DNA of 64,000 bases from an uncultured Clostridia bacterium (GCA_947589235.1 CANQAX010000002.1:9054-73053); one strand, 5' to 3'. Positions 2,585 to 62,880 are shown, counted from the first letter of the stretch. Notes: a model not told the origin generated them from the letters alone. Program-made: numbers and translations.

Positions 2585-4113
2585 TTCTCCCTCCTTGCCG
2601 TCGCGTTGCCCTCTTCGTCGAATCCGTAGAGGTAGCGCTCCTCTTTCCCGTGTGAATCATACCAGACCTGCGCGTAGAAGGGCATCTTCTCCGCGAGAAG
2701 GTCGAACCGCCACGGCGCGGGCATGCAGAAGGGGCACCAGTGCCCGCCCTTCAGAACGGTGTAGGGGCTCGCCTCGAAGGTGTGCCCCTCGCAGCACCGC
2801 CATGTGAGCTTGCGGTAGACGTCCCCCTTCTCCATCTCCTCGCTCAAAAGCTCTCCGCCGCGGAAGGCAGCGGCGCCCCGCATGTCCTCCGTATCCCACT
2901 CGGAGAGCGGCTTGCTCTCGTCGTAGCCGTGATCGAGAAGGCGGGCGTTCTCCCTGTCGCGCATGGCGTCATAGTCGCCGAAGTCCCCCTTCGCGATGAG
3001 CTTGACGCCCTCCCATCTGTCGGGGAGCGCCTTCGCCGCCTCCATGCTGCCGAAGGTCGCGATGACCCTCGCCTCGTCGCCGTTCTTTACCCAGCGGTAG
3101 GGAGAATTGGGGTGATTGCGGAGCCTGCGGAAGAGAAAGAGGTCGATGAGCCCGCGGGGGACGAACTTCCCGAGCGCATACAGCTTGTGCGCCCGCCCGA
3201 TCTCCTTCCAATATTCGTGCACGTCGTCGCGCTGATAGGAGAAGAGCTCCTCGAGCTCGCCCCCGTCGTAAAACCAGAGCCCGTGGAAGTTGCGCGTCGC
3301 GAGCCACTTGGGACGGAAGAACTTTTCCGCCGAGCCGCCGATGATGCCGAACCCGTCCTTGAAGGTGTCGTAGCCCGTCTCCATGCCCTTCTTCCCCGCG
3401 CCGATGTTGTAGATCTTCTTCCAGAATCCGGGGACCTCGCCCTTCCCGTCGCGCTCGAGAATGCGGCGGATGAGATACCCGCTGTCCCGCGAGGAGACCC
3501 ACTCGAGGGGCGCGTTGAGGGCGGTGTGGAACATGAGCCCGTCCGAGATGTTGTCGTGCATCATGTTGGGGTGGAGCATCGCCGTCTGCCGCAGAACCGC
3601 CCAGCAGTCGAGCTCCGCGTCGAGGCAATACCGCTCGCCGTACAGCTTGTCCATGGCATAGTGGTCGAAGGGACTGACGAGGAGAGGGTCCCCCACCCGC
3701 CCGAAGGGGTGCTTCTCGTTGCGGTTGCCGTACAGCGCGACGGTGGAGATGTGAATGTATTTGGGCTGCGGGGACTGCGCCTTCACGGCGTTGACGATGC
3801 ACATCGCGCCCTCGCGGTTGCATTTCTCGCTCGCCTCGGGGCTCGCGTCCGAGCGGGGCGGAATGACCGCCGCCATGTGCACGACGTAGTCCGTTCCCGC
3901 GACGAGCCGTTCGCACGCGACGGGGTCATGGAGCCAGCCGCGCACGATTTGGATCTTCTCCCCGTACGCCTTCCGAAGCCGCTTGGCGAGCTTGTTGTTC
4001 TTCTTTTTCGGCGTGAGCAGGACGCGGATCCACTCCACTTCCCGCAGGGTCATGCTCTGCGCGAGCGCTTCCCTGCCCATATTCCCGCTGACGCCCGTCA
4101 TGGCGATCTTCAT
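2581..4113 (-). CDS. NAD-dependent epimerase/dehydratase (extended SDR) family protein with a long C-terminal extension
   Basis: MKIAMTGVSGNMGRE is a Rossmann GxxGxxG-type N-terminus. VVHMAAV and ...Y..DKLYGER are SDR-like motifs. The protein is 510 aa, with a GAGGGT RBS before the ATG at 4113. Confidence 0.8.
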   Translation of the reverse strand: MKIAMTGVSGNMGREALAQSMTLREVEWIRVLLTPKKKNNKLAKRLRKAYGEKIQIVRGWLHDPVACERLVAGTDYVVHMAAVIPPRSDASPEASEKCNREGAMCIVNAVKAQSPQPKYIHISTVALYGNRNEKHPFGRVGDPLLVSPFDHYAMDKLYGERYCLDAELDCWAVLRQTAMLHPNMMHDNISDGLMFHTALNAPLEWVSSRDSGYLIRRILERDGKGEVPGFWKKIYNIGAGKKGMETGYDTFKDGFGIIGGSAEKFFRPKWLATRNFHGLWFYDGGELEELFSYQRDDVHEYWKEIGRAHKLYALGKFVPRGLIDLFLFRRLRNHPNSPYRWVKNGDEARVIATFGSMEAAKALPDRWEGVKLIAKGDFGDYDAMRDRENARLLDHGYDESKPLSEWDTEDMRGAAAFRGGELLSEEMEKGDVYRKLTWRCCEGHTFEASPYTVLKGGHWCPFCMPAPWRFDLLAEKMPFYAQVWYDSHGKEERYLYGFDEEGNATARREK

Positions 4114-4144
4114 TTGTTACCCTCGTAGAACTTTTAACTGTTTT

Positions 4145-4173
4145 AGTATAGTACAATCCGCGCGGCTTGTCAA
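4145..4173 (-). promoter_or_regulatory. SigA-type promoter of the SDR/ferredoxin/flavoprotein operon
   Basis: Minus strand: TTGACA (4173-4168), 17-nt spacer, TATACT (4150-4145). This lies about 30 nt upstream of the ATG at 4113. Confidence 0.6.
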
Positions 4174-4227
4174 ACGCTGTAATGTTTTTCGGTGACATTT
4201 TCACGATTTTTTTCGGAAAAAATCTCC

Positions 4228-4242
4228 GCCCCCGCCGATTGG
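4228..4242. repeat. Left copy of the 15-bp direct repeat GCCCCCGCCGATTGG flanking the AT-rich islet
   Basis: Identical 15-mer at 4228-4242 and 6544-6558. On the minus strand the left copy is followed by GGAGATTTTTTCC. Confidence 0.85.
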
Positions 4243-4401
4243 GCGGTGTTCGTGTGGATTCGGAATCGAACGGCTTGGCAATTGTATAGACCGCTTTTTT
4301 TTGCAACAAAAGCGGGCAAAATTTCTCTTTGAGGGGAAACAGGATAAGGATTGTGGGCATTCCTGCCCCGGTCGCCCCTTAACAGGCGGGAAACCCGCTC
4401 A

Positions 4402-4530
4402 TTATTTCTTTTTCGTCGAGTTCTTCTTTTTCGCATAGTACGCGGCAATTGCCGCTTTTTGTTTTTTCCGCGCCTCCGGAGTTTTGGCTTTTACATAGCT
4501 ACTTCTCTTTTTTTCTTTATTGAAGAACAT
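4402..4530 (-). CDS. Possible 42-aa highly basic peptide
   Basis: The ATG at 4530 overlaps the end of the 4517..5287 gene. The peptide reads MFFNKEKKRSSYVKAKTPEARKKQKAAIAAYYAKKKNSTKKK*. A small hairpin GCGGGaaaCCCGC (4386-4398) follows. There is no clear RBS, so this is speculative. Confidence 0.25.
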   Translation of the reverse strand: MFFNKEKKRSSYVKAKTPEARKKQKAAIAAYYAKKKNSTKKK

Positions 4531-5287
4531 TCTGTTCGCCCTCCATGCTTACAACTGCTTCAAAGTCGCATTCGTCACAGTAAGCCTGCAATCGCTCTAT
4601 TAGTCTTTCACTCGGCTTGAATTTTTGTTTTATGAAATAGACATCCTGCATATCGTACAGCGGTGTTGCCGCGATCTTACATTCGTTGATATCATAAAAT
4701 ACGCAGTAATTTCCGAGGTCTGTCCAATATCCGTAAAAATAATCAAACGCGAATACTTTGTGTCGCTCATTTGTTTCTTTGCTTCGGAAATATAATATCC
4801 GATATTTACAGCAAGCAGTAGAAAAAATATCCAGTTCCCTGTCGAATATCAACGCTTCCCTTTTGTATAACGGAAGCATACTATATTCATTCAGCAATCC
4901 GCGGATATATACGGATACCTCTTGTGCCGTTATCATGGTCTCCGACGTTTCTATTTCATCAAAGACGGAAATGTTTTCTTTTGAAGGACGGATCCAAATG
5001 GATTCTTCCAGTTTTTCCAGATCCTCATCGTTGAAATACACCCTGTCAATGACGGTGTTTACGGCGTTATAGATATTTTCACTGTCTGTCCGATTGTATT
5101 CGGTCTTTAATATTTTTTCGATTTGGTTGCGTCGTTCTTTGCGCACTTCCACGAGCGTGGGAATGAGCTTATTCAAAAGCCCATTCTTATTTGACTTTCC
5201 GTTTTTTGTAAATTCACAGCGCAGCGCGTCGATTTCCAAAATGTTCGCCACAAAGGACGAAACCTTCACTTTGATTTTGTCTTTCAT
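4517..5287 (-). CDS. Hypothetical protein, possibly a WYL-like ligand-sensing regulator
   Basis: ORF 4517..5317 trimmed to the ATG at 5287 (GGAG RBS 8 nt upstream). It uses AT-rich codons. The C-terminal stretch YRILYFRSKETNERHKVFAFDYFYGYWTDLGNYCVFYDINECKIAATPLYDMQDVY loosely follows the WYL-domain beta pattern. No family could be assigned confidently. Confidence 0.7.
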   Translation of the reverse strand: MKDKIKVKVSSFVANILEIDALRCEFTKNGKSNKNGLLNKLIPTLVEVRKERRNQIEKILKTEYNRTDSENIYNAVNTVIDRVYFNDEDLEKLEESIWIRPSKENISVFDEIETSETMITAQEVSVYIRGLLNEYSMLPLYKREALIFDRELDIFSTACCKYRILYFRSKETNERHKVFAFDYFYGYWTDLGNYCVFYDINECKIAATPLYDMQDVYFIKQKFKPSERLIERLQAYCDECDFEAVVSMEGEQNVLQ

Positions 5288-5308
5288 TCGGTAACTCCTA
5301 TCATTCAC

Positions 5309-5337
5309 ATTATACAAACTGTCTACCCATATATCAA
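5309..5337 (-). promoter_or_regulatory. Consensus promoter for the 4517..5287 gene
   Basis: Minus strand: TTGATA (5337-5332), 17 nt, TATAAT (5314-5309). The spacer contains the repeated box GGTAGACA (TGTCTACC on the plus strand). Confidence 0.6.
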
Positions 5338-5402
5338 GAAAATATAGATAAATCGTAAATATTGTCTACCATAAAACCCGAAATACGGCAGACGGAATTT
5401 TG

Positions 5403-5431
5403 TTGAAGTGCAAGTATTTTTTTGCTATAAT
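5403..5431 (+). promoter_or_regulatory. Consensus promoter for the 5491..6485 three-gene operon
   Basis: TTGAAG (5403-5408), 17 nt, TATAAT (5426-5431). Confidence 0.6.
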
Positions 5432-5490
5432 GAAAATGTAAGCGGAGCAAGGCGCCCCTCTGCTTGACAAAATTTAAGGAAGGTATTAAA

Positions 5491-5865
5491 ATGAGTATAG
5501 TTGGTTTTTTGCTTAAGCCAAAAAAAGAAATGGCGAAAAAAAATACGAAGTATGTAAGGGTCGGTAAATACCATCTGACTTCCCATGCGCAGAACCGGAT
5601 TGTTCAAAAGGAAAGAGCAATGGACAAGATCGATGTTTTGGACAATCTGTTTACAAAACCAAACGCCATTACGCAAGTGAAATACAATAAAAACGGCAAA
5701 CCCTCATATGATCGTGTGGGCAAGAGAATTACGACAAGTATAAATCCAACAAACAACAATGTTGCGACTTGCCGACCTGTAAGTAAAAAAGAAATGAAAC
5801 AATTCGGCTTGACCGATATCGGGAAAAAAGGAGGAAAAAGGAAATATGTTAAGCGAAAGTCTTAA
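5491..5865 (+). CDS. Hypothetical basic protein, weak DUF4258 / BECR-fold RNase-toxin-like pattern
   Basis: ATG at 5491 after an AAGGAAGG RBS. The protein reads MSIVGFLLKPKKEMAKKNTKYVRVGKYHLTSHAQNRIVQKERAMDKIDVLDNLF...YDRVGKRITTSINPTNNNVATCRPVS... and ends in a lysine-rich tail. The H..HA..R ... D.L ... T.I.P...V.T pattern resembles DUF4258-type toxins, from memory only. Confidence 0.7.
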   Translation: MSIVGFLLKPKKEMAKKNTKYVRVGKYHLTSHAQNRIVQKERAMDKIDVLDNLFTKPNAITQVKYNKNGKPSYDRVGKRITTSINPTNNNVATCRPVSKKEMKQFGLTDIGKKGGKRKYVKRKS

Positions 5866-6121
5866 AAGCAGATTTACGCCGAGAGCAAAAGAGGAAGCCA
5901 AAAAACTTTTATCCGAAATGAAGATAGCGGAGTTGAACGACGACAACCTCTATGAGGTCGAAGTCGAGCTTGACACAAGGGTAAGCGGATTGGTCACGAT
6001 GAATGAATGTGAACATCAACCGATAGATCATGAGCTTTTGGACATCTACGATACACTGACGGATATTATTCTTGAGCACGAAGAAGAGATAAATTTCCTG
6101 AACAAGTTGTTTTTGGAATAA
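5846..6121 (+). CDS. Hypothetical small acidic protein
   Basis: Strong RBS AAAGGAGGAAAAAGGAAAT before the ATG at 5846. It overlaps the previous gene by 20 nt. The protein is 91 aa and rich in D/E (…NDDNLYEVEVELD…EHEEEINFLNKLFLE). Confidence 0.7.
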   Translation: MLSESLKSRFTPRAKEEAKKLLSEMKIAELNDDNLYEVEVELDTRVSGLVTMNECEHQPIDHELLDIYDTLTDIILEHEEEINFLNKLFLE

Positions 6122-8804: not shown

Positions 8805-9536
8805 TCAAGGATCCGGAGAAAACCGCACGGTGAGAACGGGCACATGCGGCGGGTTGTTGAGGCGGAAGGGAAAGCGGCTGCTCCCAACCCCGCGCGAGAC
8901 GAGCAGGGTCGTGTTCGGCGGGAGTTGATACAGCCCCTCCGTGTAGCGGGGAAAGAGCCCCTGCCCGGGCGCGTACACCCCCCGCCCGAACAGGCGGAAC
9001 TGCCCGCCGTGCGCATGCCCCGAGACGATGAGGTCGGGCATCAGCTCCTTCGCCGCGGCGGGTGCGAGCTCGGGGCGGTGCAGAAGGAGAATGCGGTACG
9101 CCCCCTCTTCCATGGCAGGCGCCTCGCCGCCGTTCGTCGCCCCCGCAATGAGGATAACCCCGCCCTCTCTTTCGAGGCGGGCACAGCCGTTCGTGACGTT
9201 GTGAACGCCCGCGCGCTCGAGCTCCTGCAGGATACGGGCGCGGTCGGGGTGCGCCGCCTCGTGGTTTCCCTCCGCAAAATACACGGGGAAGTGCGCCGCA
9301 AGCTCGCGGAGAAAGGCGAACGCCGCGGGGGAAAGCGGACGGCGCCTGCAGACGAGGTCGCCCGAAAAGAGCACGGCGTCGGGACGGGCGCGGACAAGCG
9401 ATGAGAGGAGCTCGGCGCAATCGACGCGCTCGCGGGGAAAGTGCAGGTCGGAGAGATGCGCAAAGCGGACGGAGAGATCCCCTTCCCCCGTCTCGTACTC
9501 GACAAATTCCGCTCTCTTGTTCTCAAACAGTCTCAT
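8805..9536 (-). CDS. Metallophosphoesterase (calcineurin-like)
   Basis: Signature motifs HLSDLHF, SGDL, GNHE and GHAHGG are present. Confidence 0.85.
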   Translation of the reverse strand: MRLFENKRAEFVEYETGEGDLSVRFAHLSDLHFPRERVDCAELLSSLVRARPDAVLFSGDLVCRRRPLSPAAFAFLRELAAHFPVYFAEGNHEAAHPDRARILQELERAGVHNVTNGCARLEREGGVILIAGATNGGEAPAMEEGAYRILLLHRPELAPAAAKELMPDLIVSGHAHGGQFRLFGRGVYAPGQGLFPRYTEGLYQLPPNTTLLVSRGVGSSRFPFRLNNPPHVPVLTVRFSPDP

Positions 9537-9608
9537 AGCTCTATTGTATGCGGCTCTTTCCCGTTTTTTCGGCTTTCACTCTCGGCATTTCGGATTTTGC
9601 GCTTACCA

Positions 9609-9785
9609 TTGCGATTGCTTCCGTTCGTCGCTGCGCCTTTTCCGCACGCTTTTGCGAATGGTCCCGTTCGCCGCTGCGTCTTCTCCGCACGCTTTTGCGA
9701 TTGCTTCCGTCCGCCGCTGCGGCTTTCCCGCACGCTTTTGCGAATGGTCCCGCTCGCCGTTTCGGCTTCTCGGATTTGATATTCC
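9609..9785. repeat. Tandem array, 43-bp period, about 4 units alternating two subtypes
   Basis: TTGCGA anchors sit at 9609, 9652, 9695 and 9738. A typical unit is TTGCGATTGCTTCCGTTCGTCGCTGCGCCTTTTCCGCACGCTT. Confidence 0.85.
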
Positions 9786-9879
9786 TCTTTTTTGTACCCC
9801 ATTCCGACGTTTTTCTAACACGGGTCGGAAAAATTCCTTTTGCTTTCGTGTGAATCAAATATTCCAACCCCCTCCCCTA

Positions 9880-10303
9880 CCCCTCCCCCTTACAAAGGGG
9901 GAGGGCAAGATATGGTACCCATACCCCTCCCCCTTACGAAGGGAGAGGGCAAGATATGGTACCCTACCCCTCCCCCTTGCGAAGGGGGAGGGGTAGGGTA
10001 CCCATCGCCCCTCGTAAAGGGACAAGAAGAGACAGGAGCACACGCCCCCTCCATTGGAGGGGTGGAGCGGCGCACCATGTTCAACAGCCCAGTGGGCTGT
10101 GAACGCGCCGCGACAGGAGCGCAGGAAAGCGCGACGGGGATTCGGCGGTCCCTGCCGCCGAATCGCCCGCAAGGGCGGGGGTGGGCTGAACGCGAGCGAA
10201 TCGCGGGGTTTCCGTCATTTCGACGACGCGTAGCGGCGCACGAGCCATACGACTTGTCATTTCGACGACGCGTAGCGGCGCACGAGCGAACCGCTGGGTT
10301 TCT
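9880..10303. repeat. Cluster of GC-rich hairpin words plus partial GTCATTTCGA units
   Basis: CCCCTCCCCCTTACAAAGGGGGAGGG-type palindromes occur three times at 9885-10000. GTCATTTCGACGACGCGTAGCGGCGCACGAGC occurs at 10213 and 10256. Confidence 0.8.
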
Positions 10304-10455
10304 GTCATTTCGAGCGGAGCGGAGTATCGCATGAGCCACGGGCGAATGCGATACGGAGCGAAGTCGAGAAATCTATGCTCAAGAGTGCAGAGTGGTTTCG
10401 TTTATTCTCAATAAGGTTGAGATGTCTCGACTACGCTCGACATGACATTATTGTA
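10304..10455 (+). repeat. Copy 1 of a ~150-nt structured dispersed element
   Basis: TGTCATTTCGAGCG (10304-10317) pairs with CGCTCGACATGACA (10434-10447). GTATCGCAT pairs with ATGCGATAC (10324/10346). GTCGAGAAATCT pairs with AGATGTCTCGAC (10363/10420). Other copies lie at 26511, 26896(-), 36257 and 48535(-). Confidence 0.85.
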
Positions 10456-10543
10456 CGCCGTATCGTGACACAAGCCGCGGCGGGACGACATGACACTATT
10501 GTGCGTCGGGACGGAACACATGCCACGGCAAAACAATACGAAA

Positions 10544-26373: not shown

Positions 26374-26510
26374 GCGATAAATTTTTCGTTTTGTACTTTT
26401 TGTGTGAACTTTGAACAAACGGGGGGAACTTTTCCGCCCTCCCCTTTCCGCCCCGCCCCCTTCGGGGGCGACATGACACGATTGTGCGGCGGAGCGGAAG
26501 CCGCACAGGT

Positions 26511-26693
26511 TGTCATTTCGAGCGGAGCGGAGTATCGCACGAGCCGTAGGCGAAGTAGCGGAGCGGAGTATCGCACGAGCATTGGGCGAATGCGCTACGA
26601 AGCGAAGTCGAGAAATCTATGCTCAATAAGGCAGAAATCGACTTTGTAATAAGGTTGAGATGTCTCGACTACGCTCGACATGACATTATTGTA
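26511..26693 (+). repeat. Copy 2 of the structured dispersed element (with an internal duplication of the GGAGCGGAGTATCGCACGAGC segment)
   Basis: It has the same module order as 10304-10455. Confidence 0.85.
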
Positions 26694-26895: not shown

Positions 26896-27042
26896 ATAAT
26901 AGTGTCATGTCGAGCGTAGTCGAGACATCTATTCCTTATTAGCAAAGACATTCTCTGCATTATTGAGCATAGATTTCTCGACTTCGCTTCGTAGCGCATT
27001 CGCCCGTGGCTCATGCGCTACTCCGCTCCGCTCGAAATGACA
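26896..27042 (-). repeat. Copy 3 of the structured dispersed element, inverted relative to copy 2
   Basis: The reverse complement reads GTCATTTCGAGCGGAGCGGAGTAGCGCATGAGCCACGGGCGAATGCGCTACGAAGCGAAGTCGAGAAATCT... Confidence 0.85.
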
Positions 27043-29958: not shown

Positions 29959-30192
29959 CGGGGAGAAATCAAGCGCCCCGCTTTCGTTTTTTAATTTCCG
30001 CCGTCACACCCGTTCCCAGCGATTTGATTGCACCGAAACGCAATTCCCACTACTATCTTGATAATTTTTTTCTATAAAAAATGCACCAATAAAATCCTGC
30101 CGAACTTTTTGGAACGCATCCGAATAATCAACCGAAAGGCATCGTGTTTATCCTGTTTCCCCGTCGACCCCCAAATCGGAAACCGCCGAGGA

Positions 30193-32682
30193 TCAAGAAA
30201 CCGCGGATCCAAATTCGAGAGAAGTCATCAATCCCGACATGATTGCCGCCTCTTTTTCCGGACAAATGCACGCCAATATATTTGCCAAAGTGTTGATTAC
30301 TCTATCGATATATGCCCCGGGGCTCTTACGATACAATTCGATGTACAATAGGATAGAATCAGTATAACTTTTCAACGCCTCACTTGTTTTGTTAAATTTC
30401 AGGTACGCATCGCCGAAATGATTGCACGTGCGGGCAAGTTCATTGGAAAAGGAAAACTGCTTATATATTTGCTTGGCAGCGAGATAATTTTCCTCTGCGC
30501 CATTCAGTTCCCTCTTTTGGACAAACAACTCGGCAAAAAGACAATGGATCGCCGCGAGTTCCGCATCCGAACTTTGACCTGCGAATGACAAAATTCTCCG
30601 TTGCATCCGCGCTCCTTCTTTGAGAAATTGTTCTGCTCGATTGAGATCCCCCGTCTGCAAATACAGTTCGGCAAGATTTTTATACGCTTCGACAACGCTC
30701 CTTTCGTTTGCTTCCGGATTTTGCTGTGCCATTTTTTGCCGTATCTTCAATGATTGCAAACACCACGCTTCGATCATGTCCGTATCTATCTTCTTACGAT
30801 AATACGAAAAATCCGTGATTGGAGGATCCTCCTTGTCGAAAACCGCAGCGTCGATTTTTTTGCTACATGCTGCAAACTTTTTCGCATCCTTCTCGTCCCC
30901 GTAATTTGTGTACTCGCGTGACAAGATTTCGCATATCAATTTCAACAGCGACGCAAACGCTTGGGCTTTGTCTCGCTTTGTTTTATGCTGCATGAGCGCG
31001 TAACGCAATTTGAACGCCTCGACAAAATAGCGATCCTTTTGCCTATGCGATAAAATCGCGCAATTGATATGCGCCAATCTGGCACTGATATCGGCCACAT
31101 ATTTTTCATAATCGGCATGCGTTTTTATGAGAATGTTGCATACATCGAGCGCTTCTTTCAGCAAATCTTCCGCCTCGCGGTGCCGATTCGTTTGATAATA
31201 CAGTTCCGCAAGCCAAATATTGATGTCCGCCTTTTTGATCTGCTTTTCATCGGTCTCATCAGCAAAATCGTAAATTATCAATGCGTCGCGGTATAACGCT
31301 TCCGCACGCGCATGCCGATTGAGACAATAATATACTTTGGCGAGATCGATACATGAATCCGCATAGTCGAATTTGAAACTCGAATCTGCTTGAGACAATT
31401 CCCTTCTTATCTGTACGCAACGCGACAAGATATTATCTGCTTCTTGGTATTTGCCGAGTTTATAATATGCCAACCCGCAAAGATTTTCGGCATCTCCTTT
31501 GCGCCTTTTCCCATTGATATCGTCCGTTTTGAAAAACAAATCGAGTGAAAGACAAACCGAGATGCACTTTTCATACTGCGTCTGTTGAAATAAAAATAAC
31601 GCATATTCATACATAACTTTTTTGGGCATCTGCGGGCGGTTTTCGACTTGCTCCACCGCTTTGATATAATTTGCATGAACCTCGTCCCAACGCGCCTGCG
31701 CTTTTAGCGCAAGAATTCGCATACGGTATTCTTCTACGATTGCAATTCTTTCTCCGATAACATTTTTTTCCATCTCATCCAATTCTGCCACGTTGTTCTC
31801 AATATCCGCAACATTCAGCGCTTCGAGAACTCCGTCATAATCGCCAGAATCGAAACACTTGATTGCTTTTCTTATATTATCCGAAATCGCTTTACCGCTT
31901 GTTGTGAGCGATACGATGCTGTTTCCGATATCCAAGATATTCCCCGCCAGTTCATCAATATCTGCTTTCAATCTATCCCTTTCTTTTGCCGCTTTGCTCA
32001 ATTCGCGGTATACTTTGTAATTCCCCTCATCCGCCGCATACATTGCCTGTAATCTTTGGCTATTTTCCACCGCCTTCGTATAGTTCTCCCAAAGTTCGGT
32101 ATATTCTGCATTCTCGGCAAAAAGCGGGATGCGCCCCACCGGGATGATGCTGCTATCGGCGCACACAATAGCGTTGTCCTTCACGGTTATATCGGCTTTT
32201 ACAAAACCGTGCACCTGTAATTGAGTAATGATCCCCAATTTCAATGAATCAATATGCGAGTACTCCCTGTGATAGTGCAACAGTTCCTCATCGATCATGC
32301 GCATTACATTTTTGATTTCTTCGGAGGGGTCCTCATCTGCCGTCGTTTTTTTGAAATATACTACGATCTTCGGCTTGTTGCAAATTCGATTGGAATCGAG
32401 CGCGATCTTAAGTTCGTGAAATGTAACCTCTCCCACCTTATGCCAAAAAATAACGAAGCACATGTCCGAGCCTTGAATGAGTTCATCTAACGATGCTTGC
32501 GATCCTTCAATGCGAATTGAGTGATCCATCGTATCGCTTTCACATTTGTACAACTTGATAAAGATCCCGGATTCTTGATAGATATTGTTCAGTTGGTTGA
32601 TAAAATCGCCTATCGCAAGACGATCATATTCCAAATCCGTGATGGAAGATGCCAAGAAAAATGTTACGGTTTTTTTATCCAT
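30193..32682 (-). CDS. TIR-like/DUF4062-like N-terminal domain + coiled coil + multi-TPR protein (829 aa) in an AT-rich island
   Basis: ORF 30193..32781 trimmed to the ATG at 32682. The N-terminus is MDKKTVTFFLASSITDLEYDRLAIGDFINQL...IKLYKCES...CFVIFWHKVGEVTFHELKIAL...KPKIVVYFKK. A coiled-coil stretch follows (…KAAKERDRLKADIDELAGN…). There are at least 6 TPR-like units (LAYYKLGKYQEADNIL, LAKVYYCLNRHARAEALY, LAELYYQTNRHREAEDLL, LAELYLQTGDLNRAEQFL ...). Confidence 0.85.
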   Translation of the reverse strand: MDKKTVTFFLASSITDLEYDRLAIGDFINQLNNIYQESGIFIKLYKCESDTMDHSIRIEGSQASLDELIQGSDMCFVIFWHKVGEVTFHELKIALDSNRICNKPKIVVYFKKTTADEDPSEEIKNVMRMIDEELLHYHREYSHIDSLKLGIITQLQVHGFVKADITVKDNAIVCADSSIIPVGRIPLFAENAEYTELWENYTKAVENSQRLQAMYAADEGNYKVYRELSKAAKERDRLKADIDELAGNILDIGNSIVSLTTSGKAISDNIRKAIKCFDSGDYDGVLEALNVADIENNVAELDEMEKNVIGERIAIVEEYRMRILALKAQARWDEVHANYIKAVEQVENRPQMPKKVMYEYALFLFQQTQYEKCISVCLSLDLFFKTDDINGKRRKGDAENLCGLAYYKLGKYQEADNILSRCVQIRRELSQADSSFKFDYADSCIDLAKVYYCLNRHARAEALYRDALIIYDFADETDEKQIKKADINIWLAELYYQTNRHREAEDLLKEALDVCNILIKTHADYEKYVADISARLAHINCAILSHRQKDRYFVEAFKLRYALMQHKTKRDKAQAFASLLKLICEILSREYTNYGDEKDAKKFAACSKKIDAAVFDKEDPPITDFSYYRKKIDTDMIEAWCLQSLKIRQKMAQQNPEANERSVVEAYKNLAELYLQTGDLNRAEQFLKEGARMQRRILSFAGQSSDAELAAIHCLFAELFVQKRELNGAEENYLAAKQIYKQFSFSNELARTCNHFGDAYLKFNKTSEALKSYTDSILLYIELYRKSPGAYIDRVINTLANILACICPEKEAAIMSGLMTSLEFGSAVS

Positions 32683-36030: not shown

Positions 36031-36256
36031 GATTTTTCTCCTTATGTGTCGATTGGTCTCCCCGCGGCGCCGGCACGAACGCACGGAACCCCTGCTTCCC
36101 ATTATAGCCGCCCCCCCCCCGTTGTCAAGCATTTTCAACAGAATGTGGAAATTTTTGATCCTGACGCTTGGGAAGAATGCGGCAAACGCCTGACGCGAGC
36201 GAATCGCGGGTGACTGTCATTTCGACCGAAGTGAGCGGCGCACGAGCCGCAAGGAC

Positions 36257-36405
36257 TGTCATTTCGAGCGGAGCGGAGTAGCGCACGAGCAATGGGCGAG
36301 TGCGGTACGGAGCGAAGTCGAGAAATCTACGGCAAAATAATGCAGAGTTCGACTTCGTCAATAAGGAATAGATGTCTCGACTACGCTCGACATGACATTA
36401 TTGTA
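36257..36405 (+). repeat. Copy 4 of the structured dispersed element
   Basis: It has the same modules as the other copies. The inner hairpin here is GTAGCGCAC ... GTGCGGTAC. Confidence 0.85.
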
Positions 36406-36558
36406 CGGCGTGGCGGTATGAGGCGCACGCGCTCGCGCCACCTTCCCCTTCCCGAGGAAGGGTAAGGCTAAAATAAGGAAGAGGGCGCGAACGCCCGCAT
36501 ATAACAAAAGGCTTCCCCCTTCACACAAGGGGGAAGCTGTCCCCGCAAGGGGACTGAT

Positions 36559-36690
36559 GGGGATTGGTAAATATGCTCCCATCCCCATCCGTCACGGCTT
36601 GCACCGTGCCACCTTCCCCTTCCCGAGGAAGGGTAAGGCTTTCGCTCGTTTCCTCGCACAAATTCTTTTCCCCGAAAAGATTTTGTGCGA
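36559..36690. repeat. 132-nt repeat, near-identical to 62747-62878, abutting the 3' end of the MATE gene
   Basis: GGGGATTGGTAAATATGCTCCCATCCCCATCCGTC...CCACCTTCCCCTTCCCGAGGAAGGGTAAGGCTTTC... followed by the hairpin GCACAAATTCTTTTC-ccc-GAAAAGATTTTGTGC (36656-36688). Confidence 0.85.
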
Positions 36691-45194: not shown

Positions 45195-45282
45195 TGCGAC
45201 ACAATAAAATACTAACCATATAAAAGATACATTGGCGTCGGTGTATCCTTATTACCTTATATGGTTAGTTGATTGTGTCGCA
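45195..45282 (+). ncRNA. About 88-nt extended nested hairpin in the 5' leader (unclassified cis-regulatory RNA candidate)
   Basis: TGCGACACAAT (45195-45205) pairs with ATTGTGTCGCA (45272-45282). ACTAACCATATAA pairs with TTATATGGTTAGT. GATACA pairs with TGTATC at the tip. Confidence 0.45.
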
Positions 45283-45304
45283 ACAATTCGGGGATACTCG
45301 AAGC

Positions 45305-45336
45305 GGGCGCCTCGAATTGAGGCGTCCTTATTTTTT
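45305..45336 (+). terminator. Leader intrinsic terminator (attenuator) 8 nt upstream of the RBS
   Basis: GGGCGCCTC-gaatt-GAGGCGTCC followed by TTATTTTTT. The RBS AAAGGAGGAA lies at 45344-45353. Confidence 0.65.
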
Positions 45337-45358
45337 GCCCGCGAAAGGAGGAACAGCT

Positions 45359-48214
45359 ATGAAAAAGAAACTTTTACTTGTCCTGCTGACGCTTGTCGCC
45401 TCGCTGTGTCTCTGCTTCGGGCTCGCCGCATGCGGAGGATTCAAGACAGAGGGCACATATTATCTCTTTGAAGACGAAGAATACGATAAAAGCACATATT
45501 TCATTCTCAAAAAGGGAAAATGGACGGACGAAAACGGCGCATCGGGTGAATATGAAATCGACGGAGATACGATCACTTTCTATTCCAACTTGTTCGGACA
45601 GAGAATGGAACTCACGAGCGGGACGATCAAGGACGGCGTTCTCACGATGGGCGGCGTGTTCGGCGACGCAATCTATGCACAGGAGGGTGCGGCACACGTG
45701 CACGAATACGGCGATTGGGTCACGCAGACTCCCTCGACGTGCACGGAATACGGCACGGAAGTCCTCATCTGTAAGACATGCGGAAAATATCAAAGCCGTC
45801 CGCTTCCTCTTGCTCCGCACCCCTACGGCAAATGGGAGATTACCATTTCCCCGACTTGTACCGAAGTGGGAGAAGAAAAGCATACCTGCACCGTCTGTTC
45901 CCATGAAGAAACCAGAGTAGCGAATCCGCTCGGGCATGAATTTACTGTGGAGAACAGGTGCATTCGCCATGAAAACTGCGGTACGGAATGGGAGTACACC
46001 GAAGGTCTCGAATACGACCTTGATACAGAAACAGACACCTACAAGGTGAAGGGGATCGGCACGGCAAGCGGCGACATTGCGATTCCCTACGGCTATAAAG
46101 GGAAATTCGTGACCTCGATTGGAGATTGGGCGTTCAATAGTTGTGGCGTAATTACAAGTGTTGAAATTCCCGACAGCATCACCTCGATTGGGAATTATGC
46201 GTTCGCTTATTGTGTCAGACTTACGAGCGTAACGATTGGAAACGGCGTGACCTCGATTGGATATCAGGCGTTCTATGATTGCGACGGACTTACGAGCATT
46301 ACCATTCCCGACAGCGTGACTTCGATTAAACGCGAGGTGTTCCGTGATTGCAGCGCGCTTGAAAGCGTCACGATTGGAAACGGCGTGACCTCGATTGGAA
46401 ATAGTGCGTTCTCGGGTTGCAGCGGGCTTACAAGCATTTTGATCCCCGACAGTGTGACCTCGATTGGAAGTAGTGCGTTCTCTGGTTGCAGCAGGCTTGA
46501 AAGCATTACGGTTGCGACGGGAAATCTGAATTACAGCAGTCAAGACGGAATTTTGTATAACAAGGCAAAGACGGAAATTGTGCACGTCCCGAAAGCAATC
46601 AAGGGCAGTATCGCCATTCCCGACGGTGTGACCTCGATTGGAAGTTCTGCGTTCTCTGGTCGCGATGGACTAACGAGCGTTACCATTCCCGATAGTGTGA
46701 CCTCCATTGGAAGTCGTGCGTTCCGTGATTGCAGCGCGCTTGAAAGCGTGACGATTGGAAACGGCGTGACCTCGATGGGAGATGATGCGTTCGAGGGTTG
46801 CAACGGACTTACGAAAATTCGTATTGCAGACCTTGCGGCATGGTGCAGGATCAATTTCGGGAACGAGGATGCCAATCCTCTCCGTTGTGCACATCATCTG
46901 TACTTGGACGAAAATGAAATAAGGAACCTTGTCATTCCAAACGAAGTTACGGAAATCAAGAGATGTGCATTCTCTGGTTGCGACGGACTTACAAGTGTTA
47001 CGATCCCCGACAGCGTGACCTCGATTGGAGAGTATGCGTTCCGGGGCTGCACCAAACTTACGAGTGTTTCCATTCCCAACAGCGTGACCTCGATTGGAAG
47101 ATTTGCGTTCCGGGGCTGCACCAAACTTACGAGTGTTTCCATTCCCAACAGCGTGACCTCGATTGGAGATTATGCTTTCTCTGGTTGCAGTGGACTGACG
47201 AGCATTGAAATTCCCAGCAGTGTGACCTCGATTGGAGATTATGCGTTCCGTAATTGCAGCGAGCTTACGAGTATTACAATTCCCGACAGTGTAACATCGA
47301 TTGGAGAGCGCATGTTCGAGGGTTGCAGTAGGCTTACGAGCGTAATAATTGGAAACGGCGTGACCTCGATTGGAGATTATGCTTTCTCTGGTTGCAGTGG
47401 ACTGACGAGCGTGACGATTGGAAGCGGCGTGACCTCGATTGGAAGTAGTGCGTTCAGTGGTCGTAGCGGACTTGAAAGCATTACGGTTGCAATGGGAAAT
47501 CCGAATTATAGCAGTCAAGGCGGAATTTTGTATAACAAAGCAAAAACGGAAATTGTGTACGTCCCGAAAGCAATCAAGGGCAGTATCGCCATTCCCGACG
47601 GTGTGACCTCGATTGGAAGTTCTGCGTTCTCTGGTCGCGATGGACTAACGAGCGTTACCATTCCCGATAGTGTGACCTCCATTGGAAGTCGTGCGTTCCG
47701 TGATTGCAGCGCGCTTGAAAGCGTGACGATTGGAAACGGCGTGACCTCGATGGGAGATTGGGCGTTCAAGGACTGCACTGGGCTTGAAAGCGTCATTTGG
47801 AATGCGGAAAATTGTACAACGGCAGGGAGTTACAGCTATCCGATTTTTAAGGGTTGCACAAATTTTAGGACAGTGACATTTGGTGAGACTGTCAAAACAA
47901 TTCCCGCTTATGCGTTCAAGGGTTGCACCGAGCTTACGAACATTGCAATTCCCGATAGTGTGACATCAATTGGAAGTGAGGCGTTCAGTGATTGCACCGG
48001 ACTTACAAGTATTACAATCCCCGACAGCGTCACTTCTATTGTATATGCGGCATTCTCGGGTTGCAGCGGACTTACCGACATTCAATTCGAGGGCACAGTA
48101 GCAAAATGGAATGCGATTGAGAAAGGAGTGGCTTGGGACGGTGGCACAGGCAATTACACTGTTACTTGTACGGACGGAACGATAAAATGGGACGGGACTG
48201 TGACGTATTTTTAA
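45359..48214 (+). CDS. BspA-like leucine-rich-repeat (LRR_5-type) surface lipoprotein
   Basis: ORF 45269..48214 trimmed to the ATG at 45359. The protein begins MKKKLLLVLLTLVASLCLCFGLAAC (lipobox). A Cys-rich segment (TCTEYG...CKTCG...) follows. After that come more than 25 units of ...LTSVTIPDSVTSIG..AF.GC..... Confidence 0.9.
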   Translation: MKKKLLLVLLTLVASLCLCFGLAACGGFKTEGTYYLFEDEEYDKSTYFILKKGKWTDENGASGEYEIDGDTITFYSNLFGQRMELTSGTIKDGVLTMGGVFGDAIYAQEGAAHVHEYGDWVTQTPSTCTEYGTEVLICKTCGKYQSRPLPLAPHPYGKWEITISPTCTEVGEEKHTCTVCSHEETRVANPLGHEFTVENRCIRHENCGTEWEYTEGLEYDLDTETDTYKVKGIGTASGDIAIPYGYKGKFVTSIGDWAFNSCGVITSVEIPDSITSIGNYAFAYCVRLTSVTIGNGVTSIGYQAFYDCDGLTSITIPDSVTSIKREVFRDCSALESVTIGNGVTSIGNSAFSGCSGLTSILIPDSVTSIGSSAFSGCSRLESITVATGNLNYSSQDGILYNKAKTEIVHVPKAIKGSIAIPDGVTSIGSSAFSGRDGLTSVTIPDSVTSIGSRAFRDCSALESVTIGNGVTSMGDDAFEGCNGLTKIRIADLAAWCRINFGNEDANPLRCAHHLYLDENEIRNLVIPNEVTEIKRCAFSGCDGLTSVTIPDSVTSIGEYAFRGCTKLTSVSIPNSVTSIGRFAFRGCTKLTSVSIPNSVTSIGDYAFSGCSGLTSIEIPSSVTSIGDYAFRNCSELTSITIPDSVTSIGERMFEGCSRLTSVIIGNGVTSIGDYAFSGCSGLTSVTIGSGVTSIGSSAFSGRSGLESITVAMGNPNYSSQGGILYNKAKTEIVYVPKAIKGSIAIPDGVTSIGSSAFSGRDGLTSVTIPDSVTSIGSRAFRDCSALESVTIGNGVTSMGDWAFKDCTGLESVIWNAENCTTAGSYSYPIFKGCTNFRTVTFGETVKTIPAYAFKGCTELTNIAIPDSVTSIGSEAFSDCTGLTSITIPDSVTSIVYAAFSGCSGLTDIQFEGTVAKWNAIEKGVAWDGGTGNYTVTCTDGTIKWDGTVTYF
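46496..46783 (+). repeat. Intragenic 288-bp duplication, copy 1
   Basis: It is near-identical to 47471-47758, with the last ~190 bp identical by eye. The offset is 975 bp (in frame). Confidence 0.85.
47471..47758 (+). repeat. Intragenic 288-bp duplication, copy 2
   Basis: See 46496-46783. Confidence 0.85.
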
Positions 48215-48270: not shown

Positions 48271-48534
48271 AATGAGGCTATGAAGGACCCCCCATCCTCT
48301 CCCCTCTCTGCAAACAGAGAGGGGAGAGGATGGGGGGTGATTTTTTGCCGCCGTGTTATATCCAACCCCCTCCCCCACCCCTCCCCCTTACAAAGGGAGA
48401 GGGTAAAAAGAGGCGAGGCGTCATTTGTATGCCCACCCCCGCCCTTGCGGGCACCCCCCCCCACGGGAGGGGGCTCCGTGCGCCGCTCTACCCTCCGCAG
48501 AAAGAGGGTAGGGGAGTGGATTAATGAAACGGCA

Positions 48535-48682
48535 TACAATAGTGTCATGTCGAGCGTAGTCGAGACATCTCAACCTTATTATCAAAGTTGATTCCTGCGT
48601 TATTCAGCATAGATTTCTCGACTTCGCTCCGTAGCGCATTCGCCAATTGCTCATGCGCTACTCCGCTCCGCTCGAAATGACA
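48535..48682 (-). repeat. Copy 5 of the structured dispersed element
   Basis: The reverse complement reads GTCATTTCGAGCGGAGCGGAGTAGCGCATGAGCAATTGGCGAATGCGCTACGGAGCGAAGTCGAGAAATCT... Confidence 0.85.
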
Positions 48683-61126: not shown

Positions 61127-61158
61127 ATCCCCCTCCCGTTTTGTTTTCTTTCTCTTTA

Positions 61159-61810
61159 TCTCCCGTGCAGGCTTCCTTTCTTCTCGGAAGCCGCCGATTC
61201 GCTGTGCAAGACCGCCGAATCCCACTGCGTAAGACCGCCGCGCGGATTTTCTCCCCCGAAACAACAAGCACCCTTCTCTCGGGTTCCTCTCTCCGTCTCC
61301 CGTTCGGGTTTCCTTTCTTCTCGGGAGCCGCCGATTCGCTCTGCAAGACCGCCGCGCGGATTTTCTCCCCCGAGACAACAAGCAACCTTCTCTCGGGTTC
61401 CTCTCCCGTCTCCCGTCCGGGTTTCCCTTCTTCTCGGGAGCCGCCGATTCGCTGTACAAGACCGCCGAATCCCACTACACGACCGCCGCGCGGATGCTCT
61501 CCCCCGAGACAACAAGCGCGTCTCACTCGGGATCCTCTCTCCGTCTCCCGTGCGGGTTTCTTTCTTCTCGGGAACTGCCAACACGCTCTGCAAGACCGCC
61601 GAATCCCACTACACGACCGCCGCGCGGATTTTCTCCCCCGAGACAACAAGCACGTCTCACTCGGGTTCCTTTCTCTTTATCTCCCGTGCGGGTTTCTTTC
61701 TTCTCGGGAGCCGCCGATTCGCTCTATATGACCGCCGCGCGGATTTTCTCCCCCGAGACATTGAGCAACCTTCTCTCGGGTTCTCTCTCTGTCTCCCGTT
61801 TATCTCCCCT
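61159..61810. repeat. Tandem array of five 112-137-bp units
   Basis: TCTCCCGT anchors sit at 61159, 61296, 61409, 61544, 61680 and 61792. The units differ by presence or absence of a 24-nt GAATCCCACT..GACCGCC module. Confidence 0.9.
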
Positions 61811-61845: not shown

Positions 61846-61874
61846 TTGCATTTTCGCGCGACATTTTGTATAAT
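61846..61874 (+). promoter_or_regulatory. Consensus promoter placed for a leaderless transcript of the 61881 gene
   Basis: TTGCAT (61846-61851), 17 nt, TATAAT (61869-61874). The ATG at 61881 lies 6 nt after the -10 box, and there is no RBS. Confidence 0.55.
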
Positions 61875-61880
61875 ACAGGT

Positions 61881-62138
61881 ATGTTCCGCATCTGGGCAAA
61901 AGTCCTCACCGAGGACAAGATCGTAAAACAGACCGTGTATGAAGGGGAGGGCGCCTTCGCCTATTCTTCCTTTTTCCGCTATCTCGCCGAAATTTGCGAC
62001 ATGCTCGACGTGCCCACGCCCGTCCTTCTGAAGCCGCATATCCTGCAATATGCGAAATTCCGTCACGTCGTGTTCCGCCCCCGCGACTTCATCGAAGACC
62101 CGGGATTCGACAAGCTCATTCTCGAAAATATTTCGTGA
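61881..62138 (+). CDS. Hypothetical 85-aa protein
   Basis: Only the tail of ORF 61494..62138 lies outside the repeats: MFRIWAKVLTEDKIVKQTVYEGEGAFAYSSFFRYLAEICDMLDVPTPVLLKPHILQYAKFRHVVFRPRDFIEDPGFDKLILENIS. Confidence 0.6.
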   Translation: MFRIWAKVLTEDKIVKQTVYEGEGAFAYSSFFRYLAEICDMLDVPTPVLLKPHILQYAKFRHVVFRPRDFIEDPGFDKLILENIS

Positions 62139-62394: not shown

Positions 62395-62880
62395 CCAACC
62401 TGAATTTTTGCAACATGGGGTGCGAAAACGCCCCTTTTTTTGCCTTCCCCCCTCGGGGGGAAGGTGTCCCGAAGGGACGGATGAGGGGCACGACGACACG
62501 CAGTAAGGCAGCAAGAGTGAGTAACCTCATACCGTGCCGCCTTACGGCGGGGCGACATGCCACTATTATGCGGCGGGTTGGAGCAAACGCCCCTCCCCCC
62601 CCCGCCCTTACGGGCACCCCCTCCGATGGAGGGGGCTCTGTCTCGTCGCTCCACCCAACAGTGGTGGGGCAAAAAAAGGAAGAGGGCGCGAACGCCCTCT
62701 TATAAAATAATTGTGCGCGGAGCAGGCTCCGCCGTTGGGCGGTGGTGGGGATTGGTAAATATGCTCCCATCCCCATCCGTCGCGGCTTACGCCGTGCCAC
62801 CTTCCCCTTCCCAAGGAAGGGTAAGGCTTTCACCTCTTTCCTCACGGAAATTCTTTTCCCCGAAAAGAATTTCGTGAACT
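62395..62880. repeat. Mosaic of repeat words shared with 27095-27140, 26815-26880 and 36476-36690
   Basis: CCCCCCTCGGGGGGAAGGTGTCCCGAAGGGACGGATGAGGG occurs at 62448 and 27098. The 132-nt block 62747-62878 matches 36559-36690. Confidence 0.85.

Follow-up and report, generated by a model that had tools for sequence, protein, structure and literature searches.

Five dispersed repeats in an uncultured Clostridia genome as probable head-to-head dimers of CGTC-REP-like hairpin units

The window analysed in this study, a 64,000-nt stretch of DNA from an uncultured Clostridia bacterium (GCA_947589235.1 CANQAX010000002.1:9054-73053), contains five intergenic elements of about 150 nt, which are repeats of the CGTC-REP or NTS/SRM kind, that is, selfish or domesticated DNA rather than a new structured RNA. 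The best explanation is that two REP-like hairpin units, joined head to head, make up each element as a heterodimer comparable to a REPIN or BIME, and that the units are sites of an Ssn-type nuclease; we consider this reading probable though well short of certain. The anatomy of the unit, covariation within its stem, occurrence in several phyla, insertions into ORFs, the bracketing of nuclease genes in other genomes and a loss of colinearity at one element boundary were all observed. Service of the repeats probably falls to an Ssn-type GIY-YIG nuclease with single-stranded DNA (ssDNA) as its substrate.

The five repeats are located at 10304-10455 (+), 26511-26693 (+), 26896-27042 (-), 36257-36405 (+) and 48535-48682 (-), numbered here as copies 1 to 5, and they align along their full length. 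A profile built from four of the copies recovered all five, its own four included, with E-values of 1e-41 to 1e-49. The five copies, their coordinates and their intergenic position are as given in a preliminary description of this DNA. The terminal word GTCATTTCGA, with one mismatch at most, occurred 16 times against 6.4 expected, a count reached by none of 100 shuffled sequences. All copies were judged to be intergenic from ORF and Pfam evidence, and all five lie between genes on the same strand. Copy 1 is located between metallophosphoesterase and GxGYxYP genes, copies 2 and 3, which form an inverted pair in one intergenic region, between a GH92 gene and a transporter-like gene, copy 4 between a MatE gene and an unknown gene, and copy 5 between the genes of a BspA-type LRR protein and a Gate-domain protein. 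A conserved flank reaches about 11 nt past each end (5' GCCGCAnrG, 3' yTATTGTAyGsC).

Each window copy consists of a 72-nt unit of subtype TT/AA, a spacer of about 45 nt and an inverted 28-nt unit of subtype GT/AC, with the tags pointing outward; the subtype is defined by xx, the two positions after GTCAT, and x'x', the two positions before ATCT. All ten units carry the tag TGTC, and all five copies are TT/AA + GT/AC heterodimers. In copy 1, the long unit (10303-10374, +) comprises the TGTC tag, the stem ATTTCGAG ... CGAGAAAT and a C tail, and its loop holds an inner hairpin with arms at 10324-10332 and 10346-10354 (+). The variable spacer (10375-10419, +), whose 3' end is AATAAGGTTG, is followed by the short unit TGTCATGTCGAGCGTAGTCGAGACATCT (10420-10447, -), which is of subtype GT/AC and inverted, with its tag outward. 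The long and short units were placed at 26511-26618 (+) and 26658-26685 (-) in copy 2, at 26971-27042 (-) and 26903-26930 (+) in copy 3, at 36257-36328 (+) and 36370-36397 (-) in copy 4, and at 48611-48682 (-) and 48543-48570 (+) in copy 5. The long unit of copy 2 carries an internal tandem duplication of 36 nt, corresponding to the 5' part of the inner hairpin, and its inner hairpin has two mismatches, while that of copy 4 has one G.G mismatch and one compensated closing pair.

Partial units and end fragments were also recognised in the window. A partial or degenerate unit at 10213-10245 (+), composed of CGTCATTTCGAC, a GCGTAGC mini-hairpin and GCGCACGAGC, lacks the 3' half; a second partial unit stands in tandem to it at 10255-10287 (+), and another lies directly upstream of copy 4 at 36215-36247 (+). 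The solo end fragment CGACATGACACTATTGTGCG (10486-10505, +) corresponds to the outer end of the short unit plus the conserved flank, and a further one, CGACATGACACGATTGTGCGG, lies beside copy 2 (26469-26489, +) and is also present in a 98.8%-identical strain. A promoter reading of the 3' flank (reverse complement TACAAT-N6-ATG, leaderless-like) was dropped as not general, because apart from the element copies only two sites, 9534-9548 and 61869-61883, have the motif ahead of an ATG. At 9534-9560, GAGCCGCATACAATAGAGCT-ATG directly before the metallophosphoesterase start matches the outer flank of the short unit (GCCrTACAATAr) and could be a flank remnant or a leaderless-type promoter.

The preliminary description had assigned three pairings to each copy, and all of them were found with the counts given there: an outer helix with 13 of 14 positions paired and a single T.C mismatch, a second long helix with 11 of 12 paired and a single A.G mismatch, and a 9-bp inner hairpin between these two. 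Folded as RNA, copy 1 gave -63.3 kcal/mol (z = -5.8) and its opposite strand -52.3 kcal/mol (z = -6.3). In the outer and second helices, one unit of a dimer pairs with the other; both helices result from the capacity of two inverted units, one of subtype TT/AA and one of subtype GT/AC, to form base pairs between them. The mismatches of both helices fall exactly on the subtype positions xx and x'x', and neither helix showed covariation across the wider family of about 150 related loci from soil and gut metagenomes. Among 105 informative strand-readings of complete elements, xx and x'x' were complementary within the left half in 96 and within the right half in 96, and complementarity of xx between the halves was found in 4 for the outer helix and in 0 for the second helix. 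Since the whole dimer folds about 20 kcal/mol more stably than its halves folded apart, on both strands, the three-helix form could be the one actually taken when the DNA or RNA is single-stranded. A pattern specific to the flanks of the window's inner hairpin gave 0 matches in a metagenome scan, which yielded no further exact three-helix variants.

The inner hairpin is a 9-bp hairpin grown in the loop of the long (left) unit in this genome. At stem position 4, copies 1 to 5 have T:A, T.C, G:C, G.G and G:C, respectively, and at position 9 they have T:A, C.A, T:A, C:G and T:A. The two compensated pairs reported earlier for this hairpin are therefore real, but three broken cells (both positions in copy 2 and one in copy 4) had been omitted from that account. 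With only two compensated pairs in five copies and the three disrupted ones left aside, the argument from this hairpin to selection on the structure is weak. The long helices do not covary, and real covariation was found in another stem, that within each unit.

The unit has the form [C/T]GTC-AT-xx-CGAG...loop...CGAG-x'x'-AT-C and is made up of an unpaired (C/T)GTC tag, an 8-position stem arm, a loop, the return arm and an invariant C tail, the stem positions being A:T, T:A, x:x', x:x', C:G, G.A, A.G and G:C. The loops are 6 to more than 50 nt long (up to about 55), often with a small nested hairpin, and those of the window units range from 6 nt (CGTAGT) to 46 nt. In 61 distinct 31-nt units, 96.4% of the stem cells pair and 41 cells were changed on both sides; the score for intra-unit stem covariation was reached by 0 of 500 shuffles, and all slid controls collapsed. 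Three of the six Watson-Crick pairs change on both sides in these 61 units, no stem pair shows a one-sided change of the G-U type, and G3, T4, C5, A6 and T7 as well as A26, T27 and C28 are invariant. Complementary xx/x'x' were present in 130 of 145 distinct short-loop units, the types being TT/AA, GT/AC, TC/GA, CT/AG and CC/GG. A third covarying position was found across the tandem G.A (CGAGCG/GTCGAG versus CGACCG/GTGGAG), and in a distant variant, GTCATCCTGAACG...GTGAAGGATCT, C:G is replaced by T:A and G:C by A:T around an unchanged tandem G.A. An alternative stem register, thermodynamically preferred, showed no covariation and was rejected.

Single units fold at -1.5 to -4 kcal/mol as DNA in nearest-neighbour calculations, no better than shuffles (the Neisseria NTS gives -8.9 kcal/mol), so that the unit stem rests on covariation and not on predicted energy. 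A protein that recognises duplex DNA symmetrically would be another possible cause of this covariation. As had been proposed, the element is a genuine structured dispersed repeat and not simply a decaying copy.

The suggestion of ssDNA beside RNA in the preliminary description was a sensible alternative. Among DNA mini-hairpins, GNA triloops with a C:G closing pair are the classic example of very high stability, and the tetranucleotide 5'-CGAG-3' self-pairs via sheared tandem G.A. Of 76 medium-length loops, 58 contained a C(GNA)G triloop mini-hairpin, against 2.8 expected. These triloops, the lack of G-U-type changes and the occurrence of the units in both orientations hint that DNA rather than RNA is the relevant form, as do the in-frame units of an ABC-transporter gene and the lack of a matching Rfam family.

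The family extends well beyond the window. A one-genome-per-species scan with the second-helix pattern GTCGAGAAATCT-N30-60-AGATGTCTCGAC returned 32 loci, hosted by Verrucomicrobia (Udaeobacter, Chthoniobacterales), rabbit-gut Clostridia MAGs, Hymenobacter, Limnocylindria and one Dormibacterota MAG, and all 32 loci represent a simpler version of about 90-120 nt without the inner hairpin. A metagenome scan in which only the first two words were fixed, with a gap of 30-60 nt, returned at least 120 loci from soil, sediment, animal gut and human gut. Among the metagenome matches listed, some units stood alone and others in tandem arrays, some forms resembled four-way junctions whose gaps held unrelated perfect hairpins, and a human-gut type had a 50-nt structured gap. 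The relatives carry CGTC or TGTC tags, and their units occur in both orientations relative to the flanking genes, one orientation being moderately favoured over the other with respect to the gene downstream (about 12 versus 4 independent cases). Clustering of the ORFs across about 150 loci produced synteny groups and ABC-transporter paralogues and nothing else; neither a recurrent transposase nor a Y1 transposase was among them.

Copies in Verrucomicrobia often lie directly against a start codon, the genes concerned being nfo, rpiB, tatD and an esterase-like one. It lies immediately upstream of an nfo-like gene in nine Verrucomicrobia MAGs (L002, L003, L011, L017, L019, L023, L025, L029 and L031), where the element's terminal ATGACA supplies the ATG from which that gene apparently starts. 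The orthologous copies linked to nfo have kept their stems while their loops diverged; this retention is partly a matter of ascertainment, since the search pattern prescribed the second helix.

A structured non-coding RNA, either an sRNA or a cis-regulatory leader, in which selection at the RNA level maintains a three-way junction, would account for the very stable fold of either strand (-63 and -52 kcal/mol, z about -6), for the position of four of the five window copies on the sense strand of the downstream gene, and for the start-codon abutment and stem retention seen in Verrucomicrobia. We nevertheless regard it as unlikely, because the long helices carry systematic mismatches and do not covary, the copies stand in both orientations to the flanking genes and even form an inverted pair in one intergenic region, the units also occur alone, in tandem arrays and in frame within ORFs, and the one stem that does covary lacks one-sided changes of the G-U type. 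The proposed comparison with Rfam was carried out for the window and 17 related loci and gave 0 matches at the gathering threshold, and the permissive E-value mode gave only chance-level matches for the same set. A tRNA/tmRNA scan gave no match, no hammerhead-like or other ribozyme core was found by eye or with Rfam, and literature matches to the sequence words of the element consisted of shRNA and primer noise only. The characterised relative, the Ssn/NTS system, works on ssDNA and not on RNA (PMC11893778). RNA-level side effects may also occur, given the orientation excess and the start-codon abutment in Verrucomicrobia.

One such effect would be the co-option of copies, whatever their origin, as hairpins of the mRNA between operon genes, where they would stabilise 3' ends, serve as processing sites or attenuate read-through. 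This would be compatible with the dimer of nuclease sites, and we hold it to be a minority possibility. REPs of E. coli have been shown to act as mRNA hairpins in operon spacers. The placement of all five copies between co-directional genes, the related copies lying 4-90 nt from stop codons and also at start codons, and the nfo-linked copy kept with conserved stems in nine Verrucomicrobia MAGs speak for co-option, whereas the elements are not followed by a T-run of the intrinsic-terminator type and the conservation of the stems is in part due to the search pattern, as stated above.

Several related loci show units within or beside coding sequence. Within an MsbA-like ABC-transporter ORF (L087:835-2925), units form an in-frame array whose translation gives ...RASLGRNDK...PSVISSGGEAKEV four times over, and these in-frame units recall the Rickettsia palindromic elements within genes. 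The nucleotidyl-transferase gene of L158 is 38 aa longer than its orthologue in L157, and L158 has units at that place. At the orthologous fabH-tatD loci L022:7470-7640 and L032:3080-3230, diverged versions of the first ~10 tatD codons (M-x-I-E-T-H-A-H-L-D) stand on both sides of the element; this duplication of ~30 bp, with about 7 differences, is att-like or resembles a long target duplication, and it is absent from other copies. At L015:6644-7238, three tandem repeats of ~238 nt contain one complete two-unit element each.

All fetched loci were searched by tblastn for GIY-YIG genes, with GIY-YIG-like queries that were approximate and served as probes only. Among the matches listed, which were chosen for the repeat alone, small GIY-YIG genes were present in 3 of 120 metagenome loci (L057, L083 and L116), in each case less than 300 nt from units and bracketed by them. 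The three proteins are single-domain members of PF01541 (80-106 aa, E = 1e-15 to 1e-16), and the solved structures nearest to the bracketed nucleases are UPF0213 proteins (E = 3e-5). At L083, one of the bracketing sides is of the TTTCGAGCG...GTCGAGAAATCT type, which is the type of the window's long unit. In the homologue lineages P0245, P0293 and P0344, which differ in gene neighbourhood and have their own unit subtype each, every lineage has a unit at a distance of 32-42 nt before the start codon, and in two of the three an inverted unit extends across the gene's 3' end. Units were thus found to bracket single-domain GIY-YIG genes of 80-115 aa in six independent contexts, mostly on Bacteroidales or unassigned metagenome contigs and not in Clostridia; within the 64-kb window, tblastn detected no GIY-YIG gene.

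This arrangement has a described counterpart. SsnA is a 94-aa single-domain GIY-YIG protein that acts on ssDNA, and its own repeats usually stand on either side of its gene; the NTS, an extended dRS3 with the sequence CGTCATTCCCGCGMAVGCGGGAATCYRG, is bound and cut by SsnA only as ssDNA, the GTC before the stem governing cleavage and the C after the stem governing binding (Chenal et al. 2025, PMC11893778). The units reported here share with NTS/SRM repeats the (C/T)GTCAT, the imperfect palindrome and the ATC (compare the NTS, CGTCATTCCCGCGMAVGCGGGAATCYRG, with TGTCATTTCGAGCG..GTCGAGAAATCT here), and the GTC 5' of the stem and the C 3' of it are invariant. The copy density is likewise high, with five dimers in 64 kb, and bracketing of small GIY-YIG genes in the manner of SRM-ssn-SRM was seen in the related loci, the nucleases there being placed in PF01541 only. 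Differences were also evident. The stem here has a conserved tandem G.A and is thermodynamically weak, the loops are 6 to >50 nt rather than 3-5 nt long, and the hosts include Verrucomicrobiota, Chloroflexota, Bacteroidota and Clostridia MAGs, while Ssn has been described as mainly found in Pseudomonadati (PMC11893778). The published SRM pattern HGTCWYN(0-2)YYVSBRHN(0-5)WNVSBRGN(0-2)RNCYNB had no match either among the 145 units or in the window, although it matched the NTS and NTSvar controls.

The second point of comparison is the class of CGTC-tagged REPs, which have a terminal CGTC tag, or its TGTC or CCTC variant, and an 8-9-bp stem starting with A:T, T:A, and which include Neisseria dRS3 and Rickettsia RPE-4 and RPE-6 (Di Nocera et al. 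2013, PMC3733652). Members of this class mostly form head-to-head dimers with outward tags and spacers of 20-100 bp, frequently as heterodimers, and they lie between co-directional or convergent ORFs, some of them inside genes, with no dedicated transposase (PMC3733652). The window elements correspond in their TGTC tag, in the A:T, T:A start of the stem, in their outward-tag heterodimers with a spacer of ~45 nt and in their position between co-directional ORFs, and occasional in-frame copies in genes were seen among the relatives. Their stem has 8 positions, of which six are Watson-Crick pairs supported by covariation and positions 6 and 7 form the G.A/A.G tandem. CGTC-tagged REPs have fully paired stems, loops of 4-5 nt and a CCA-like tail (PMC3733652), unlike the long loops of the present units, which may hold nested hairpins, and their C(T) tail. 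None of the four described CGTC-REP families was reported from Bacillota or Verrucomicrobia (PMC3733652). The earlier remark that the element could be assigned to no known family no longer holds, since it can be placed in the CGTC/TGTC-tagged REP class and has a close analogue in the NTS/SRM repeats.

On the favoured explanation, the units would be the cognate ssDNA hairpin sites of a putative Ssn-type GIY-YIG nuclease encoded elsewhere in the genome. Such a nuclease would bind the folded unit and nick just 5' of the tag, and its activity, through mobilisation or recombination, may spread and maintain the repeats, with any effect on neighbouring genes as a transcribed hairpin being presumably secondary. 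If the link to the nuclease is true, pairs of Ssn-type nuclease and repeat exceed the published motif definition and reach into gut Clostridia and abundant soil phyla, and a very common metagenome source of spurious small ORFs and assembly breaks would be explained. The conserved G.A stem with its swappable xx/x'x' would provide a concrete recognition code of relevance to programmable ssDNA cutters. For annotation, the elements should be masked as REP-like repeats and not recorded as RNA genes or ORFs.

A more far-reaching version is that the tandem-G.A units constitute a large uncatalogued nuclease-linked branch in Verrucomicrobiota, Chloroflexota, Bacteroidota and Clostridia, that the heterodimer itself is mobile, the GIY-YIG protein nicking outside both tags on opposite strands and so releasing or copying the dimer, and that the three-way junction is a single-stranded transposition intermediate. 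We offer this as speculation and think it improbable; were the dimer indeed mobile in this manner, small GIY-YIG nucleases would be a new kind of transposase.

Mobilisation of a classical REPIN or BIME by a RAYT, a Y1 HUH transposase related to IS200/IS605, would suit the two inverted imperfect palindromes with a spacer, the conserved mismatches and the position between co-directional genes. As in the REPINs and BIMEs of E. coli and Pseudomonas, the inverted doublet can fold into one long hairpin, and units flank the gene of the presumed mobilising enzyme. That enzyme is here a GIY-YIG nuclease and not a Y1 HUH transposase, which was not seen among the recurrent neighbours across about 150 loci; the GTAG tag is replaced by TGTC, the GTAG in the loop of the short unit being there by chance (GAAG in relatives); and no RAYT association was found for CGTC-type REPs (PMC3733652). 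We therefore consider a RAYT-driven origin highly improbable.

Variation between strains bears on the rearrangement of the elements. A Logan contig of a close strain (L155), 98.76% identical over 12.3 kb, is colinear with the window up to 26502, 8 nt outside the tag of copy 2, and beyond this point the last 60 nt of the contig are unrelated sequence. In this strain, both L155 and the MatE contig end at or beside repeats; contig L156 ends before copy 4 and gives no comparison at that copy. A relative with 73% amino-acid identity has a 200-nt upstream region of GH92 without the element. The strain differences fit gain, loss or rearrangement at element boundaries, but they do not prove transposition; the preliminary description had put forward differing copy positions between strains as a mark of MITE-like mobility.

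A classical MITE, with 13-14-nt terminal inverted repeats TGTCATTTCGAGCG / CGCTCGACATGACA and mobilised by the DDE transposase of a full-length IS elsewhere, was likewise weighed. MITEs such as Correia/NEMIS, RUP and BOX are of similar size, with terminal inverted repeats, and are modular, intergenic and strain-variable. The window element shares the terminal inverted repeats (13/14), the size of about 150 nt, the intergenic multicopy occurrence and a strain difference at one boundary. It is nonetheless composed of two independent hairpin units and not derived from a deleted IS: its ends belong to different subtypes, each matching its own inner word rather than the other end, single units and tandem arrays are common, and no direct target-site duplication is visible at the TGTCAT/ATGACA boundaries. 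The ORF clustering across about 150 loci gave no recurrent transposase, no parent IS was present in the sequence available, and the recurrent neighbour is a GIY-YIG nuclease. A MITE is thus a very unlikely alternative to the REP-like heterodimer.

Other repeats were observed in the window. Four tandem copies of a 43-nt repeat occupy 9582-9753, within the long stretch without coding sequence that precedes the metallophosphoesterase gene. G/C-rich hairpins (CCCCTCCCCCTTACAAAGGGGGAGGG) make up a second repeat family, at 9863-9995 and 48361-48406, and similar CCCCC..GGGGG hairpins adjoin several of the main element's copies, around 26440, 26860, 27090 and 48720. A third family, of 130 nt with 90% identity and containing CCACCTTCCCCTTCCCGAGGAAGGGTAAGGCT, is located at 36434-36469, 36555-36684 and 62743-62872; it adjoins copy 4 and recurs 26 kb away, and a contig of the close strain breaks inside it. 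The largest direct-repeat family of the window, with a DNA periodicity of 69 nt, belongs to a 981-aa BspA-type leucine-rich-repeat protein at 45269-48214, and tandem repeats of 114-134 nt in four to five copies with 64-88% identity were found at 61145-61800. Two low-GC islands, at 4001-6000 and 30001-32000, have GC contents of 42% and 44%, respectively, against a background of about 60%.
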